NCBI GenBank assembly: GCA_963977445.1
Contig: CAXBPH010000006.1
Location: forward strand, 1-51,230
Direction: 5' to 3'
Origin: an uncultured bacterium
Lineage (GTDB): Bacteria; Hydrogenedentota; Hydrogenedentia; Hydrogenedentales; JAEUWI01
Length of the DNA: 51,230 nt
Both the position numbers and the translations under genes were made by a program. Under the pieces are notes generated by a model. That model was not told where the DNA came from, made no database searches, and was given only the letters and a program-made list of their open reading frames with translations. Shown here piece after piece: positions 7,334-48,316 of the stretch (positions within the stretch are counted from its first letter, which is position 1; every line of letters starts with the position of its first letter).

Positions 7334-7511
7334 AAAAAAAGAAACGCCATAACAATGGGACTCGTCATGGCGCCACTCTAGGAGGTTCACGTTTTACAAC
7401 TCAGGTAGAAAGCGCTGGGACGGCACCTTCAACCATTCAATTGTTGTAACCCGCGTAAGTTTTGACTTCCGTGTCATTCTGTCGCTTCAACATCCTTGTT
7501 TCAGCCTCGTA
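7334..7511 (-). ncRNA. Putative sigma28-dependent sRNA (copy 4 of a family); ends approximate
   Basis: Follows a sigma28 promoter; hairpins AAC-AAGGAT-GTT and TGAC-ACGGAA-GTCA (identical to copy 1); UCCC-loop hairpin; AACCTCCT anti-SD; terminator CGCCAT..ATGGCG plus T-tract. Confidence 0.7.
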
Positions 7512-7517
7512 CTAAAT

Positions 7518-42418: not shown

Positions 42419-43012
42419 ATGAGTGACTATAAACCGAGTATCCTTGCCTTCGCCGGGAGCACACGCACCAACTCACTAAATAAAAAACTCGCCCGTGCGG
42501 CCGCTGCCGGTGCCGAAGCGGCGGGGGCCTCCGCAACCTTCATCGATCTCAGAGACTATCCCCTGCCACTCTTTGATGAAGATCTGGAACGTGAAGAAGG
42601 TCTACCAGAAAACGCGGTCAAGTTACGCGAACTTTTTCTCCAGCATGATGGGCTGATTATCGCATCACCTGAATACAATGGGTCAATCAGCGCCGTATTA
42701 AAAAATACGATCGATTGGCTCAGTCGTCGTCAAGGAGACGAGGCACCCCAAATCTGCTTTAAAGAAAAGGTCGCCCTCTTACTTGCAGCGTCACCAAGTG
42801 GACTCGGCGGACTTCGGGGACTGCGGCATCTTACTACCCTGCTCCATGGTATTCAGGTCATCGTGCTACCAGAGCAAAAGGCCATTCCTGCGGCCCATAC
42901 ACTATTCGATGACTCCGGTATCGCCGATGAAAAATTGAAGGGTGATGTGGAACGACTCAGTGCGCGTCTTGTAGAAATGACAACGCGTATCCACGGAAAA
43001 CAAACACGCTAA
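42419..43012 (+). CDS. NADPH-dependent FMN reductase (ChrR/SsuE-like)
   Basis: GSTRTNSLN, SPEYNGSISAVLKNTIDWLSR. Confidence 0.92.
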   Translation: MSDYKPSILAFAGSTRTNSLNKKLARAAAAGAEAAGASATFIDLRDYPLPLFDEDLEREEGLPENAVKLRELFLQHDGLIIASPEYNGSISAVLKNTIDWLSRRQGDEAPQICFKEKVALLLAASPSGLGGLRGLRHLTTLLHGIQVIVLPEQKAIPAAHTLFDDSGIADEKLKGDVERLSARLVEMTTRIHGKQTR

Positions 43013-43036
43013 AGTCCCTGCGCCCTGTGCCGATAA
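43010..43036 (+). promoter_or_regulatory. Sigma28 (FliA)-type promoter 1
   Basis: TAAA-gtccctgcgccctgt(15)-GCCGATAA; the -35 box overlaps the upstream stop codon. Confidence 0.85.
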
Positions 43037-43042
43037 GTACTA

Positions 43043-43225
43043 GCAGAGGCCAAGACACGGAGGTCGAGGCGACAAAGTGACACGGAAGTCAACGGAGGAG
43101 GCGGTAGAGGCTAGATAACTCGTCGGGTGTCATCCCCAACACCAACGCGATCGACGTTTTGTCCCATAGTCTTTCCATCCATGAGAGGCGCCATAGCAAC
43201 TTTGTTGTGGCGTTTTTCTCTTTTT
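43043..43225 (+). ncRNA. Putative sigma28-dependent sRNA copy 1 (~180 nt); ends approximate
   Basis: GAC-ACGGAG-GTC and TGAC-ACGGAA-GTCA hairpins, GGTGT-catcccca-ACACC, tract complementary to flagellin-2 RBS/start, terminator 43188-43225. Confidence 0.75.
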
Positions 43226-43303
43226 ATCGCCACCCGCCAATCCAACGCGCCCCCACCCTGAAACCGCACAATTCATGTCTCCGACATAATTTTGTCTTCT
43301 GAC

Positions 43304-43330
43304 TAAAGTATCCCGGCGGGTTGCCGATAC
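43304..43330 (+). promoter_or_regulatory. Sigma28 (FliA)-type promoter 2
   Basis: TAAA-gtatcccggcgggtt(15)-GCCGATAC. Confidence 0.82.
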
Positions 43331-43336
43331 ATTCAG

Positions 43337-43505
43337 TACAAGGCGGCGACACGGAGGTCAACGCCAGCGCGACATGGATGTCATCTGCTACATAGCCTGG
43401 TTTCAAACTCACAGGGTGGTCAATCCCACCGCCTGCTATTGCGAGTTTCCCCAGGGCCTTACCTCCGAAGCGCGTTGCAGCCCTGTTGCAACGCGTTTCG
43501 AATTT
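43337..43505 (+). ncRNA. Putative sigma28-dependent sRNA copy 2 (~165-185 nt); ends approximate
   Basis: GAC-ACGGAG-GTC and GAC-ATGGAT-GTC hairpins, GGTGG-tcaatc-CCACC, CTTACCTCC anti-SD, hairpin 43467-43499. Confidence 0.72.
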
Positions 43506-43522
43506 CCCCGAAACTTTTTTTC

Positions 43523-43549
43523 TAAAGTCTTCCCCACACCCGCCGATAA
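43523..43549 (+). promoter_or_regulatory. Sigma28 (FliA)-type promoter 3
   Basis: TAAA-gtcttccccacaccc(15)-GCCGATAA. Confidence 0.85.
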
Positions 43550-43555
43550 GACCCC

Positions 43556-43688
43556 TATATAGAGTCAGAATTGGCACGTACCCGTACGAGAACTGGGGTG
43601 TCTATCCCAACACCTTAACCAGTCGCTAATCTCTGCTTCTTATCTCCTCGATTGCGCCATGACCTCGGTCATTGGCGCATTCTTTTTT
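43556..43688 (+). ncRNA. Putative sigma28-dependent sRNA copy 3 (~130 nt, no GGA hairpins); ends approximate
   Basis: GGTGT-ctatccca-ACACC hairpin, TATCTCCT anti-SD, terminator TGCGCCATGACC/GGTCATTGGCGCA plus T-tract. Confidence 0.68.
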
Positions 43689-43956
43689 GGGGACTGCACC
43701 GGCCGAATGGATGCCACTGAAGCCTCGTTGAACACGTGGTAAACGGGCGTCGTCCTGCATGAAACAACGATGGCGACCGCCGGGGCCGTCCCCCTGAGGG
43801 AAATCACACGCTGGCAGGCGTCATACCCCCTAAGGGGAAATGGCACTCTGGGGGAAACAGCCCCGACTGTCTTCTCGTCCTGCCCTGCGGTGCCAACATA
43901 AGCCAACCACGGGGTTTGTGGCGCTGGGTGATAATGGCCACGTCGGTGCAGTCCCC
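43689..43956. repeat. MITE/REP-like element, same family as 30646-30908
   Basis: GGGGACTGCACCGGC and GTCGGTGCAGTCCCC ends with the same internal arms. Confidence 0.85.
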
Positions 43957-43968
43957 AGCACCCCCGTA

Positions 43969-44748
43969 TCACTCAAGCCCTTCCGGTAGTCCGTAGAGCA
44001 CTTCTTTCATCACCAGACCCTGTGGCGGGGCGCAATGGCCCACAAAGGGCCCCCCGGAGGCCAGCGCTTCGCCGATAAATTCCGGGCCGAATCGACCCCG
44101 ACCTATCTCGATCAGGGTGCCAGACAGGTTTCTCACCATCTTATAGAGAAAGCCATTGCCAAAAAACTCGATATGCCACAGATTTTTGGAATCTATCGGC
44201 CCCACGACACCGCCCCGGTGAAATTTCACCGAATAGAGGGTCCGCACCGTCGTTTTCATCTGACAACCCGTGCTCTGGAAGCCCGCAAAGTCATGGGTGC
44301 CTTCTAATTGGGGCAACAGCGACTCGATCAGGTCCAAATCTACGGCATAGGGTACCTGCCACGTATAGGGCGCGCTGAAGGGGTCCATTTCCCGGCTGAA
44401 GTTAAAGGTATAGCAATACCGCTTCGCTTTGGCCGAAAAACGGGCGTTGAACTCCGAATCGACCGGTGCCAGATGACAAATCTGGATTTCCGGCTCCAGC
44501 ATCCGCGATAGGGCGTGGCTGAGCTGCGGTGGCACCTCCGGCCGGGGCCATTCACAGGAAAAGACCTGTCCCAGGGCGTGTACCCCCGCATCCGTGCGCC
44601 CGGCGCCCTGAATTCGCACGGGCTCCGAGGCGATACGGCTCAGGGCCGCTTCAATTTCCCCCTGGACGGTTCGGCGGTCGTCCTGGATCTGCCAGCCGGA
44701 GAAATTTGTGCCGAGATAGCGCACTATACCTTTGAGAGTGTGAGACAT
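43969..44748 (-). CDS. truA: tRNA pseudouridine(38-40) synthase
   Basis: YLGTNFSGWQ, GAGRTDAGVHALGQ, FNARFSA, GNGFLYKMVR. Confidence 0.95.
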   Translation of the reverse strand: MSHTLKGIVRYLGTNFSGWQIQDDRRTVQGEIEAALSRIASEPVRIQGAGRTDAGVHALGQVFSCEWPRPEVPPQLSHALSRMLEPEIQICHLAPVDSEFNARFSAKAKRYCYTFNFSREMDPFSAPYTWQVPYAVDLDLIESLLPQLEGTHDFAGFQSTGCQMKTTVRTLYSVKFHRGGVVGPIDSKNLWHIEFFGNGFLYKMVRNLSGTLIEIGRGRFGPEFIGEALASGGPFVGHCAPPQGLVMKEVLYGLPEGLE

Positions 44749-44930
44749 GGGCCCATTGTAAGGGAGGACCAGGATTCCTCGCCACTTTCGCAGGGAATGA
44801 GGGGCCGAAAAAGAATATTTTTTGATATTAATTTTGGCCTCAACGCTGCGATACCGCTGAATTGGCGTCTTTTGGTTGGTTTTCGGCGGAGCGCAGCGGT
44901 CTGGATCCGAAAATTATTTTTCAAGAAGGC

Positions 44931-44957
44931 TAAAGTTCGGGCTAAAGTTGCCGATAA
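44931..44957 (+). promoter_or_regulatory. Sigma28 (FliA)-type promoter of the flagellin locus
   Basis: TAAA-gttcgggctaaagtt(15)-GCCGATAA upstream of flagellin 1. Confidence 0.88.
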
Positions 44958-44963
44958 ATACTG

Positions 44964-45410
44964 CAGGTAAGCCGAAACAGGACTTATTCACTGAAAAATT
45001 GAAGCGAATACGTGAGACCCAGGGACGGGTCTCTGCAACATCATGGAGGATGGCGCAACAGCGCGGGCTAAGCACCCGCATGACGGCCTCGTGGCCCGAC
45101 TATGACAATTGAATCATGTTGATCGAAAACTTCGGTTTTTGGCAAGGAAAGACGGCAGGATGCCTGAGAACCTTGCCACAAGGAAACGCCGTGGTGACCA
45201 CAATGCAACCGGGCACGGGACATGCCCCACCGCAGCAGGGTTATCACCGCATCAATACAATGGGACCAATCGGCACCATGTAGGAGCCGATTTCTGAGAC
45301 AGCCACTCATGGGACGAAGGGCTTCCGCACAAGCGGGAGCCATTCAAGGGGGGTTGCCTCGGAGGTAGCGCAAGGACGCGCTATACCAACCACTCACGGA
45401 GGAATACATC
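44964..45410 (+). promoter_or_regulatory. Long GGA-rich 5' leader with candidate CsrA sites
   Basis: About 16 GGA by manual count, several in hairpin loops (GAGACCC-AGGGAC-GGGTCTC; TAGCGC-AAGGAC-GCGCTA). Confidence 0.6.
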
Positions 45411-46226
45411 ATGGGACTTCGAATCAACACCAACGTAGCAGCGCTCAATACTGCCCGTGTTCTGAAACGGTCTACCAGTTCACTCAACAAGTCGCTGGAA
45501 CGCCTTTCCAGTGGTCTTCGGATTAACCGCGCGGCGGATGACGCGGCCGGTCTGGCCATCGCTGAGGGTTTTAACTCGGTGGTACGCGGGACCCAGGTCG
45601 CACAGCGCAATGCGCAGGATGGCATCAGTCTGGTGCAAACTGCGGAAGGCGCGCTGAGCGAAACGACCAATATATTGCAGCGAATTCGTGAACTGTCTGT
45701 TCAGGCAGCGAACGGAACGCAAAGTACGGCCAACCGACTCTCGTTGGATACCGAAGTAGATCAACTGTTAGCTCAAATCGATGACATCGCGTTTGACACC
45801 GAATTTAATGGTGTGCGTGTATTGAGTTCGAATACGTCATTGACCTTGCAGACAGGCGCTTTTCAAGGGCAGACCCTGTCGATCTTGCTGACCTCGGCCA
45901 CCCAGGGACAAATTGGTGTGTCGGTAGTCAATCTGCAGACGACCGCCGGTGCCGTAAGCGCGCTGAGCACGGTAGACGCCGCGTTGCGCTCCGTTAATAC
46001 CCTTCGGAGCACGCTGGGTGCCTTTCAGAACCGACTCGAGTTTACGATTAGTACCCTGGCTATCCAGGAAGAAAACTCAGCCGCCTCAGAAAGCGCTATT
46101 CGCGATGCCGACATTGCACAGGAAACGATTCGTTTTACACGAAATCAGATTCTGGTCAGCGCAGGAACATCGATTCTGGCCCAGGCCAACATTGTGCCCC
46201 AAACGGCACTCCAGTTGCTGGGTTAA
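45411..46226 (+). CDS. fliC: Flagellin 1 (short, D0/D1 only)
   Basis: RINTN, LERLSSGLRINRAADDAAGLAIAE, LQRIREL, IRDADIA, LAQAN. Confidence 0.95.
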   Translation: MGLRINTNVAALNTARVLKRSTSSLNKSLERLSSGLRINRAADDAAGLAIAEGFNSVVRGTQVAQRNAQDGISLVQTAEGALSETTNILQRIRELSVQAANGTQSTANRLSLDTEVDQLLAQIDDIAFDTEFNGVRVLSSNTSLTLQTGAFQGQTLSILLTSATQGQIGVSVVNLQTTAGAVSALSTVDAALRSVNTLRSTLGAFQNRLEFTISTLAIQEENSAASESAIRDADIAQETIRFTRNQILVSAGTSILAQANIVPQTALQLLG

Positions 46227-46458
46227 TCATACCGTCTCTAACCAGGGCGGCCGGACCTCAACGGATTTGAGGGGCCGGAAACGGAATTACCAGCCATCGG
46301 CTGCCCTGGTCAATTTATAAACGTAGTCGAAAGGAGGACCTGAGACAATGGATGAACGGCGAGTCGCGTCGCCCGCAATCTGAAGAATGTCTACATCACG
46401 GAAGAATTAGTTACAGAGGGATCGGGAATCTCTCTGGCCACTCATGGAGGATAATACT

Positions 46459-47277
46459 ATGGGACTTCGAATTAATACCAACGTAGCGTCGCTTAACACG
46501 GCGCGTACTCTGCAACGGTCTACCAATTCACTTAACAAATCTCTGGAACGTCTTTCCAGTGGTCTCCGGATTAACCGTGCTGCCGATGATGCGGCCGGTC
46601 TGGCGATTGCGGAAGGCTTTCGTTCCGTTGTCCGTGGCTCTCAAGTCGCTCAGCGAAATGCACAGGATGGCGTAAGCCTGGTGCAGACCGCTGAAGGGGC
46701 GCTGAGTGAAACCACCAACATCCTGCAACGTATCCGCGAGCTGTCTGTACAGTCGGCGAACGGAACGCAGAGCACCACCAACCGGGCCGCTCTGAACAAC
46801 GAAGTAAACCAGCTGCTGCAGCAGATCGACGACATCGCCTTTGACACCGAATTCAATGGTGTCGCGGTGTTGAGTTCCAGCAGCACGCTGACACTCCAGA
46901 CCGGTGCCTACACCGGCCAGACCCTTCAAATTGCTGTCGTCAGTGGTGCCAGTCAAGGTGCTATCGGCGTAAGCACGGTGAATATCTCCACGGCGGCCGG
47001 CGCGGTAAGTGCCCTCAGCCAGGTCGATACCGCACTCCAGCGGGTAAACACCCTCCGCAGCAATCTGGGTGCCCTTCAGAACCGCCTCGAATTTACGATT
47101 AATACGTTGGCGATTCAGGAAGAAAACTCGGCTGCTTCGGAAAGCGCCATCCGCGATGCGGATATCGCCCGCGAGACCATTCAGTTCACGCGTAACCAGA
47201 TCCTGGTGAGCGCGGGTACGTCGGTTCTGGCCCAATCCAATATCGTTCCTCAGACGGCACTCCAGCTTCTCGGTTAA
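46459..47277 (+). CDS. fliC: Flagellin 2
   Basis: Same flagellin N/C motifs; GGAGG RBS before ATG 46459. Confidence 0.95.
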   Translation: MGLRINTNVASLNTARTLQRSTNSLNKSLERLSSGLRINRAADDAAGLAIAEGFRSVVRGSQVAQRNAQDGVSLVQTAEGALSETTNILQRIRELSVQSANGTQSTTNRAALNNEVNQLLQQIDDIAFDTEFNGVAVLSSSSTLTLQTGAYTGQTLQIAVVSGASQGAIGVSTVNISTAAGAVSALSQVDTALQRVNTLRSNLGALQNRLEFTINTLAIQEENSAASESAIRDADIARETIQFTRNQILVSAGTSVLAQSNIVPQTALQLLG

Positions 47278-47316
47278 TTAACCGGAATCCTGTCGTTCAG
47301 TCTAACGTAATTTGGT

Positions 47317-47349
47317 GGCTCCGGCGTTTGCAAAATGCGCGCCGGAGCC
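47317..47349 (+). other. GC-rich hairpin after flagellin 2 (stabiliser or weak terminator)
   Basis: GGCTCCGGCG/CGCCGGAGCC stem, no T-tract. Confidence 0.5.
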
Positions 47350-47497
47350 CCCCGAAATCATTCAGAAAGGAGATTCAAACCACGTGGTTCCATCGTCGTC
47401 GCGCCCAATAGGGCAAGGCGGATGTATAGGCACCACATGAGAAGTACACACCCGATTGGTTAGGGATACCTGATTGGGTGATCTTGGAGGTAAGATC

Positions 47498-48316
47498 ATG
47501 GGATTACGAATAAACACAAACGTCCCGGCTCTCAATACGAGCCGGGCGCTTGATCGTTCTACGCGCGAATTGAATCGCAGCCTGGAACGATTGAGCAGCG
47601 GCCTGCGCATCAATCGCGCCGCCGATGATGCGGCAGGCTTGGCCATTGCCGAAGGCTTCCGCACACAGGTGCGGGGTGCGCAGGTGGCACAGCGGAATGC
47701 GCAGGATGGCATCAGTCTCGTTCAGACCGCAGAAGGTGCGCTCAGCGAGACCACCAATATCCTGCAGCGCGTTCGAGAGCTTGCCCTGCAGTCTGCAAAT
47801 GGAACGCAAAGCTCTGCCAACCGCGCCGCGCTGAACACCGAGGTGCAGCAGCTGATCGCACAAGTCGAAGACATCGCCCTGGATACCAGTTTCAACGGCA
47901 TCAGTGTGCTCAGTAGCAACCAATCCATTACGCTGCAGACCGGTGCATACACCAGCCAGACCCTGCAGGTCAGTATTGGCGGAGCCCGCTCCACCGACCT
48001 GCGTATCAGCGCCATCAACGTCTCGGCGGTTACGGGTGCCACCTCGGCCATCAGCGCCATTGACGTTGCTTTGGCAAGCGTTAACACACTCCGAAGCAAT
48101 CTGGGTGCCTTTCAGAATCGGCTGGAGTTCACCGTGAACACCCTCGCCATTCAGGAGGAGAACGCCGCAGCCGCAGAGAGTTCCATTCGCGATGCCGATA
48201 TTGCCCGGGAAACCATTAAATTCACCCGAAACCAGATTCTGGTTAATGCCGGGGTTTCCGTGTTGGCCCAAAGCAATGTGACGCCCCAGGCCGCGTTGAG
48301 CTTGTTGAGTACCTGA
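47498..48316 (+). CDS. fliC: Flagellin 3
   Basis: Same flagellin N/C motifs; GGAGGT RBS before ATG 47498. Confidence 0.95.
   Translation: MGLRINTNVPALNTSRALDRSTRELNRSLERLSSGLRINRAADDAAGLAIAEGFRTQVRGAQVAQRNAQDGISLVQTAEGALSETTNILQRVRELALQSANGTQSSANRAALNTEVQQLIAQVEDIALDTSFNGISVLSSNQSITLQTGAYTSQTLQVSIGGARSTDLRISAINVSAVTGATSAISAIDVALASVNTLRSNLGAFQNRLEFTVNTLAIQEENAAAAESSIRDADIARETIKFTRNQILVNAGVSVLAQSNVTPQAALSLLST

Follow-up and report, generated by a model that had tools for sequence, protein, structure and literature searches.

The DNA considered here (the window) is a stretch of 51,230 nucleotides (nt) from contig CAXBPH010000006.1 (assembly GCA_963977445.1) of an uncultured bacterium of the phylum Hydrogenedentota. 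It contains flagellin genes and a four-member family of predicted small RNAs (sRNAs), of which copies c1, c2 and c3 lie in tandem on the forward strand and c4 lies on the minus strand. In each copy a sigma-28-type motif leads into a short unit closed by a G+C-rich hairpin with a T run behind it. An alignment of the paralogues reveals a shared plan, in which a central hairpin with an AUCCC loop is followed by a CU-rich tract and then by the terminator, and in every copy a 3' domain of about 25 nt mirrors, in antisense, the start of a flagellin gene between about -19 and +6. The subject of this report is a 19-nt tract of c2 that faces the ribosome-binding site and start codon of flagellin 3. Judging from sequence comparison, this tract is probably the seed of a trans-acting sRNA that represses flagellin 3 translation, within a family that extends across the Hydrogenedentota.

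Set antiparallel to positions 47484-47502, the c2 tract (43450-43468) forms 15 Watson-Crick and two G:U pairs, with two mismatches, over its 19 positions, and nine of the Watson-Crick pairs are contiguous, on GGAGGUAAG (47486-47494). The initial annotation of this DNA had reported 17 of 19 pairs with nine contiguous, and recomputation returned exactly these figures. None of 2000 mononucleotide shuffles of the 19-mer matched the observed duplex energy on the flagellin 3 start region. For comparison across the genome, a deliberately over-called set of 32,422 candidates, each a Shine-Dalgarno (SD) sequence plus a start codon, was used, and flagellin 3 was the sole candidate with at least 17/19 ungapped pairs in the SD-to-AUG register; the runners-up were 10 candidates at 16 pairs and 48 at 15. 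Allowing shifts of +-6 added one further site with at least 17/19 (C88:15729), which is an internal methionine codon in an open aldehyde-dehydrogenase-like frame. Among all 14,199,180 genomic 19-mers, 24 form at least 17 pairs with the c2 tract, the complement of c2 itself included. The duplex energy of c2 on flagellin 3 was -26.0 kcal/mol, compared with -12.0 to -21.3 kcal/mol on flagellins 1, 2, 4 and 5, flaG, csrA and fliW of the same genome. An SD context specific to flagellin 3 had also been proposed; this is true if only this genome's flagellins are compared, but it is not absolute, as the 9-mer GGAGGTAAG has 21 genomic copies (both strands), about 3-4 of which were judged to adjoin a start codon.

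The comparative evidence is what was persuasive, and it supports a pairing between c2 and flagellin 3. In 10 of 10 genomes the best flagellin partner of the c2 orthologue was the flagellin 3 orthologue, which bears out the earlier proposal that c2 is antisense to the ribosome-binding site and start of this gene. The orthologues form 15-19 pairs of 19-21 on flagellin 3, compared with 10-13 on the next flagellin (17 in genome G025), and their contiguous Watson-Crick runs on flagellin 3 are 8-14 nt long. Flagellin 3 orthologues retain GGAGGUAAGA(U/C)C ahead of the AUG, and c2 orthologues retain G(C/U)CUUACCUC. Both partners carry changes that fit one another. G001, G002, G006, G008 and G004 have U and GACC, with 11 contiguous pairs on GAGGUAAGACC, and G020 has 11 contiguous pairs on CGGAGGUAAGA, with G facing C upstream of the SD. 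In G025, a genome from a different family, the contiguous pairs on AAGGAGGUAAGAUC number 14; upstream of the SD its RNA has UU opposite AA, where the window's genome has GA opposite UU. The pattern is not confined to c2: among other family members, in both G036 and G030, UCCCAUAGCAUU pairs with AAUGCUAUGGGA (12 contiguous), and further fitted pairs are CUUGAAUGG with CCAUUCAAGG in G036, GUCUUACCCCC with GGAGGGUAAGAC in G098, and UACCCUCC with GGAGGGUA in G052. The fitted changes in these distant genera (G036, G030, G098 and G052) fall in the spacer, in the SD and upstream of the SD.

A wider comparison was made between the flagellin starts of each sRNA's own genome and those of foreign genomes, with one genome per genus and 14 genera (the eight genus mates, G037 and G030 were dropped), and seeds for the cross-genome tests were placed via a covariance-model alignment (A4). 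Better pairing with the own flagellin starts than with most foreign sets was found for 24 of the 30 sRNAs (binomial p 7e-4). By genome average, 13/14 genomes favoured their own starts (Wilcoxon p 0.007), and the exception was G010, where just two start regions were recovered.

The consensus fold of 10 c2 orthologues (RNAalifold) places 43451-43455 of the tract in helix P3, leaves 43456-43466 unpaired and starts the terminator stem at 43467. The unpaired seed accounts for the nine contiguous pairs, and the two bases that end the tract belong to the opening of the terminator. Helix P3 hardly varies, showing a single compensatory pair, and hairpin P4, which it encloses, shows a double change in four sequences. 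The putative promoter and terminator of c2 would, at the level of sequence patterns, mark a transcription unit of its own, and the terminator hairpin is conserved with compensatory pairs; a second hairpin (43495-43514) with a U7 run/T run carries the end of c2 to 43521. Copy c1 folds like c2, with UCCAUCCAUGAGA (43174-43186) as the unpaired seed, and the consensus folds of both copies agree with the annotated position of the tract directly before the terminator. This modelled layout, with an unpaired seed between an internal helix and the terminator, is typical of base-pairing sRNAs. Both a seed complementary to the SD and start codon and conservation of that complementarity were found, as would be expected of a trans-encoded sRNA that occludes a ribosome-binding site. 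Column-wise covariation of P3 between the c1 and c2 types was dropped, since their 3' strands are offset by ~3 nt, and the two types were folded separately.

The family has no match in Rfam 15 at the gathering score over the window, and at E<=5 over 42900-45500 two chance hits to small nucleolar RNAs were the sole result. By BLAST, the tandem array is present in 8/8 genus mates, and parts of it occur in 39/61 genomes searched, the window's own counted. A covariance model (R1) trained on 22 aligned family members, c3 not being among them, gives exactly four matches in the window's genome, and c3 is one of these (E=1.6e-4). Across the phylum, R1 matches occur in 101 of 135 genomes and the Flagellin_N domain in 109 of the same 135. 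RNA and flagellin are found together in 100 genomes, flagellin alone in nine, the RNA alone in one (a weak match) and neither in 25, and in family f11 both RNA and flagellin are confined to the same 2/23 genomes, both of genus g24. As related genomes are not independent, this co-occurrence is a pattern and not a test. In an alignment of 64 R1 matches, which is model-fitted and so leans towards the model, 96.3% of cells pair, double changes occur at 13/20 pairs and 0/500 shuffles scored as high. The GGA of both 5' hairpins is invariant in 22/22 aligned members. A 62-amino-acid open reading frame (43374-43562) overlaps c2; within its span the c2 orthologues carry 1- and 2-nt insertions or deletions (alignment A2), so coding by c2 is unlikely. 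Phylum-wide conservation, together with the CsrA-type hairpins and sigma-28 promoters described below, goes beyond the points of the initial annotation. The exact c1 seed-terminator pattern also occurs in eight public records, six of them titled Hydrogenedentota, Hydrogenedentes or Hydrogenedentales and one an uncultured Nitrospirales metagenome-assembled genome, for which labelling or binning is probably responsible.

The 3' domain of c1 (43162-43187) is antisense to the start region of flagellin 2 (46438-46464). Its 26-mer pairs there in three blocks at -30.8 kcal/mol, which is rank 2 of the 32,422 candidates, and on the G007 orthologue of flagellin 2, as aligned by eye, blocks of 8, 6 and 9 pairs are separated by two single-base bulges. 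Copy c3 likewise matches flagellin 3 (-22.1 kcal/mol, rank 282 of 32,422), and the c3 copies of G003 and G007 form 10 contiguous pairs with it. RNAs resembling c4 mirror the start region of the first flagellin in G015 and G048. No match to flaG was found for any of c1-c4, with duplex energies of -12 to -15 kcal/mol. Two GGA hairpins, with 3-base-pair stems and 6-nt loops, stand at the 5' end of each of c1, c2 and c4, c1 having three GGA sites, and c3 has none. The earlier suggestion that each paralogue addresses a different flagellin therefore survives in part: the assignments of c1 to flagellin 2 and of c2 to flagellin 3 stand, but one copy for one flagellin is only partly right, because c3 matches flagellin 3 as well and the preference of c4 is unclear, and flaG is left unmatched.

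The sigma-28 consensus is of the TAAA-N15-GCCGATAA type. The pattern TAAAG-N12-18-GCCGATA has five matches in the window against 0.03 expected, three in tandem on the forward strand at 43010, 43304 and 43523, one on the minus strand (7544-7519) and one at 44931, before flagellin 1. Over the whole genome, 15 sites carry the strict motif; four of them precede the sRNAs and two precede flagellins 1 and 4. The genome also has a fliA gene (FliA_WhiG, 260.6 bits; cut-off 189.6), and with both the promoter-type motif and the FliA gene found, c1-c4 would be placed in the sigma-28 (FliA) regulon. In 13 flagellin clusters with enough upstream DNA, a sigma-28 motif stands only at the first flagellin, 308-636 nt upstream, and read-through or other promoters may serve the paralogues farther downstream. 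Neither a sigma-28 motif nor a clear intrinsic terminator was found in 46226-46458 and 47278-47497, the intervals between flagellins 1, 2 and 3. These three genes may form one transcript, and any control specific to one paralogue would then need to act after transcription. Three relaxed sigma-28 matches before downstream flagellins (G015, G025 and G011) depart from the motif in both elements, were judged to lie inside the preceding coding sequence (CDS) and were not counted. Sigma-54 promoters for flagellins 2 and 3 were also rejected, the motif being unenriched (29 vs 24.8 expected) and the near-match at 46204 lying in conserved CDS.

Some further observations concern the same genes. The leader of flagellin 1 (44957-45410) extends ~450 nt from the sigma-28 motif to the AUG, a distance kept at 308-636 nt in 13 relatives, and contains additional GGA motifs, for example at ~45043-45057. 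In G000, strict sigma-28 motifs at C20:778-804 (+) and C110:15528-15502 (-) are followed by near-identical short leaders with a AUGGAGGGUUUGG start region, and the genes behind them are probably paralogous small late flagellar genes. A 110-amino-acid open reading frame with no Pfam match (43640-43972, minus strand), downstream of truA (43969-44748, minus strand), overlaps the c3 terminator from the opposite strand, and the hairpin may therefore terminate transcription in both directions.

Table 1. Predicted features of the sRNA and flagellin loci; positions are those of the window.
Feature	Position	Strand	Remarks
Small RNA copy 1 (c1)	43041..43220	+	candidate promoter 43010-43035
Sigma-28 (FliA)-type promoter of c2, TAAAG-N14-GCCGATA	43304..43329	+	pattern match
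Small RNA copy 2 (c2)	43335..43501	+	covariance model R1 match, 128 bits; orthologues in 8/8 genus mates
c2 GGA hairpin 1, CsrA-site-like	43348..43359	+	3-base-pair stem, 6-nt loop ACGGAG
c2 GGA hairpin 2, CsrA-site-like	43371..43382	+	loop AUGGAU
c2 helix P3	43395-43399 with 43451-43455	+	encloses hairpin P4, AAUCCC loop; RNAalifold, 10 orthologues
19-nt tract of c2	43450..43468	+	unpaired seed portion 43456-43466, between P3 and terminator
c2 terminator hairpin	43467..43499	+	15 pairs, several compensatory (consensus fold)
Small RNA copy 3 (c3)	about 43554..43689	+	candidate promoter 43523-43548; without GGA hairpins; seed 43636-43653
Small RNA copy 4 (c4)	7513..7337	-	candidate promoter 7544-7519; seed 7390-7374
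Sigma-28-type promoter, long leader, flagellins 1 and 2	44931..47277	+	promoter 44931-44956; flagellin 1 45411-46226; flagellin 2 46459-47277
Flagellin 3 leader hairpin, CsrA BS1-like	47451..47478	+	GGGA-containing loop; minimum-free-energy fold
Target region	47484..47502	+	from the SD (47486-47490) across the spacer to the flagellin 3 start codon (47498) and into codon 2
Flagellin 3 CDS	47498..48316	+	Pfam Flagellin_N 6.8e-43, Flagellin_C 2e-22

In the mechanism proposed here, the sigma-28-type promoter would drive transcription of c2, which would therefore be expressed alongside the late flagellar genes. Pairing in vivo would begin with docking of the unpaired seed (43456-43466) at the SD region of flagellin 3 mRNA, and the duplex would then extend across the spacer and start codon as helix P3 opens, covering about -14 to +5. 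The predicted direction of the effect is repression: the 30S subunit would be kept off, leading to less of one flagellin, flagellin 3, during the sigma-28 programme. The sister copies would act alike, c1 on flagellin 2 and c3 also on flagellin 3. Since sigma-28 promoters are confined to the leading flagellin of each cluster, the sRNAs would add gene-by-gene control of the filament beyond that exerted by transcription. The 5' GGA hairpins would link the sRNA to a FliW-CsrA-flagellin circuit, either as a small CsrA decoy or as handles for CsrA-helped annealing. By analogy with Vibrio FlaX, the best reading of the c1-c4 family as a whole is that its members would be paralogue-specific translational repressors of flagellins.

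The predicted involvement of CsrA has its own basis in the genome. The fliW and csrA genes are adjacent in this genome, on contig C74. SELEX (the systematic evolution of ligands through exponential enrichment) with CsrA is described as giving the consensus RUACARGGAUGU, with GGA in mostly 6-nt loops on stems of <=4 base pairs (PMC7652899). The c2 hairpins fit this picture (ACA..GGA..GU, a 6-nt loop and a stem of <=4 base pairs), and the GGA hairpins of c1, c2 and c4 look like CsrA sites. A GGA-loop hairpin equivalent to that in the flagellin 3 leader precedes all cluster flagellins in relatives, and the SD region of flagellins 1 and 4 is formed by the same CACGGAGG motif as the sRNA GGA hairpins. 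The P4 loop AUCCC (c2 43420-43427, c1 43130-43138 and c3 43604-43612) is complementary to GGGAU in the leader hairpin loops of flagellin 3 (47460-47467) and flagellin 2 (around 46418-46432), where it is also found in orthologues. A loop-loop kiss between P4 and the leader could be a second contact, one on which covariation is silent because both sides are invariant.

FliW, CsrA and the sRNAs might even form a single circuit, in which a CsrA dimer would act as a matchmaker, bridging an sRNA GGA hairpin and a flagellin leader hairpin and delivering the seed to the SD-proximal CsrA site. The hairpins would also titrate CsrA off the sigma-28-driven first flagellin, and the resulting switch would raise the first flagellin and silence chosen downstream paralogues within a flagellin operon that may be single. 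This extension of the mechanism is offered tentatively and is on balance doubtful. If true, the composition of the filament would be set gene by gene, in a phylum in which Hfq or ProQ has not been found.

A number of results weigh against repression of flagellin 3 by c2. Comparison with unrelated SD regions gave two answers, and whether the pairing goes beyond anti-SD coincidence depends on the measure: in register flagellin 3 is unique, but by unconstrained RNAduplex energy its rank among the 32,422 candidates is 3909 for a 33-nt query, 649 for the 16-nt seed and 303 for a 22-nt domain. The energy-ranked lists are dominated by G-rich sites that pair with CCCCAGGGCC, and the candidate sites that out-rank flagellin 3 are probably mostly not genuine starts. 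The net predicted energy is modest, the hybrid at -23.5 kcal/mol being set against opening costs of 12.7 (sRNA) and 6.3 (mRNA). In the single-sequence ensemble the mean probability of being unpaired is 0.48 for 43456-43466 and 0.19 for 43450-43455, and an alternative pairing of the c2 seed, with hairpin 1 of the same RNA, has -18.0 kcal/mol. Opposite the first G of GGAGG, which does not change in the target, the RNAs of genus mates have C, U, A or G. Because both partners are strongly conserved, genuine double changes in the c2/flagellin 3 pair are scarce. The preference for own over foreign starts is weak for this genome, in which 11 (c1), three (c2), one (c3) and nine (c4) of 15 foreign sets equal the own set. 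Flagellin 3 is a common target of c2 and c3, and c4 is without clear flagellin preference here, with -20.9 to -25.1 kcal/mol on five flagellins. The promoters and terminators of c1-c4 are pattern matches, and neither Hfq nor ProQ was found in this 94%-complete assembly. Contigs from a metatranscriptome run (X1; 8% of sampled words) represent flagellin genes of a relative, one of them covering 45580-46994 with 83 differences, and none falls on 43000-43723, which speaks neither for nor against the sRNAs.

Four other explanations were considered. Any GGAGG pairs with CCUCC, and the tract might be a generic anti-SD element like the C-rich seeds of Gram-positive sRNAs, hitting many strong-SD mRNAs with flagellin 3 among them. 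At least nine contiguous pairs with the 16-nt seed do occur at 54 candidate starts (49 distinct sites), and 648 candidates beat the duplex energy of flagellin 3 with this seed. A generic element is nevertheless very unlikely, given that flagellin 3 alone reaches 17/19 in register (48 candidates stand at 15), that c2 favours it in energy over the other flagellins, flaG, csrA and fliW, and that the complementarity runs on through spacer and start codon and tracks lineage-specific flagellin sequences. Still less credible, and highly improbable, is that the units are non-functional, being either relics (such as inverted leftovers of flagellin leaders) or protein-coding sequence. Conservation of promoter, helices and terminator in 101/135 phylum genomes, with compensatory changes in the helices, and complementarity kept across genera argue against relics, and the 1- and 2-nt insertions or deletions among orthologues argue against coding, although the metatranscriptome run has no contigs on the sRNA loci and the 62-amino-acid frame does overlap c2.

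Two further alternatives give CsrA the leading part. The sRNAs might be CsrA decoys only, their GGA hairpins absorbing CsrA under sigma-28 and so boosting flagellin translation, with the CU-rich tract playing a part within the RNA alone, such as masking hairpin 1, and leaving mRNAs untouched. Such a role would suit hairpins that are invariant (22/22) and match the SELEX hexaloops on short stems, the recurrence of CACGGAGG in the SD region of flagellins 1 and 4, the pairing of the c2 tract with its own hairpin 1 and the presence of fliW-csrA; it is nonetheless unlikely. Each RNA has 2-3 GGA sites compared with 13-22 in CsrB/C, as given in PMC6546359, and c3 retains a seed without any GGA hairpin. 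The seed is unpaired in the consensus folds of c2 and c1, and that of c1 is not complementary to its own hairpins yet ranks 2 of 32,422 on flagellin 2. In addition, the seeds co-vary with each genome's own flagellin starts, which self-masking does not predict because the hairpins hardly vary. Alternatively, pairing could activate: the RNA might mask the SD-proximal CsrA site, or alter the structure of the leader or the stability of the mRNA, and so relieve CsrA repression or protect the mRNA. There is overlap between the target and the presumed CsrA site (BS2), the sRNA has CsrA-type sites itself, sigma-28 timing is when flagellin is needed, and the E. coli sigma-28 sRNAs UhpU and MotR are described as raising flagellin levels (PMC10578931). 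Activation is judged improbable all the same, as the duplex covers both SD and AUG and would exclude the ribosome while it lasts, and neither a stand-by site nor another start was seen. Translational repression of flagellin 3 through the c2 seed is the favoured reading.

No published description of such RNAs in Hydrogenedentota was found in a literature search, the coverage of which was incomplete and excluded supplements. To our knowledge, the setting of flagellin ratios by an sRNA has so far been shown only for Vibrio FlaX, and the control of these ratios is largely open. About half of flagellated species have several flagellin genes (PMC6299084). In a 2020 review, joint action of FliW and sRNAs on CsrA in any species is said to be something that "remains to be determined" (PMC7652899), a question which the RNAs described here make testable with simple in vitro and heterologous assays. 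As an independent, phylum-wide family, they would also be a new entry for Rfam-type annotation and offer rare regulatory insight into an uncultured phylum.

The closest resemblance is to FlaX of V. cholerae, which is described as pairing with the flaB leader including the ribosome-binding site and blocking 30S binding, its loss altering filament composition (PMC11879080). In both cases an sRNA of the flagellar regulon acts, or would act, on the leader of another flagellin, and the FlaX sisters Vcr077 and Vcr078 are described as addressing other flagellins (PMC11879080). FlaX-type RNAs, however, are processed from flagellin 3' untranslated regions (UTRs) and are ProQ-associated, whereas c1-c4 are separate from the flagellin genes, each with its own sigma-28-type promoter and terminator, include copies with CsrA-type hairpins and occur in a genome (94% complete) in which no ProQ or Hfq was found. 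In E. coli, UhpU, MotR, FliX and FlgO are sRNAs that likewise depend on the late flagellar sigma factor and feed back on flagellar synthesis, some pairing with flagellin mRNA, but they are UTR-derived and pair inside the fliC CDS and with ribosomal protein mRNAs (PMC10578931). The accessible text of that paper mentions CsrA zero times, unlike the case made here by the CsrA-type hairpins. CJnc170/FlmR of Campylobacter jejuni is a further FliA-dependent sRNA that feeds back on flagellar synthesis, although no flagellin start site is named as its target in the abstract (PMC11187230).

With CsrB, CsrC and RsmX/Y/Z the family shares GGA motifs in the loops of short hairpins. The 2-3 motifs per RNA are well below the 13-22 of CsrB/C (PMC6546359) and below the more than about five expected of a sponge, the promoter is of the sigma-28 type where the Csr/Rsm RNAs are described as under GacA/UvrY control (PMC7652899), and the sRNAs here lack an Rfam match even at E<=5 and carry an antisense domain in addition. 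Dual base-pairing and CsrA-binding sRNAs are represented by McaS and GadY (PMC7652899) and by SR1 of Bacillus subtilis, where CsrA promotes annealing of SR1 and ahrC mRNA (PMC6546359). SR1 is also a precedent for a base-pairing sRNA bound by CsrA in a species in which FliW, and not an sRNA, is the known CsrA antagonist (PMC6546359), though it is without a flagellar target, and for c1-c4 the CsrA contact is a prediction. The leaders of B. subtilis hag and C. jejuni flaA are described as having two CsrA sites, which the GGA-loop hairpin and GGA-containing SD resemble here, with the motif copied by the sRNA hairpins; those two systems are described as having no antagonising small RNAs (PMC7652899, PMC4894983), whereas here a dedicated sRNA family accompanies the circuit. 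The c1-c4 family is a functional analogue of FlaX, of the E. coli sigma-28 sRNAs and of the Csr/Rsm RNAs and belongs to none of these families, and a sequence relation to FlaX is not expected. What appears new, as far as sequence can tell, is a set of stand-alone sigma-28-type sRNA genes whose several paralogues are each matched to the start of a flagellin gene, combined with CsrA-type hairpins in a FliW-bearing organism and conserved across an uncultured phylum.

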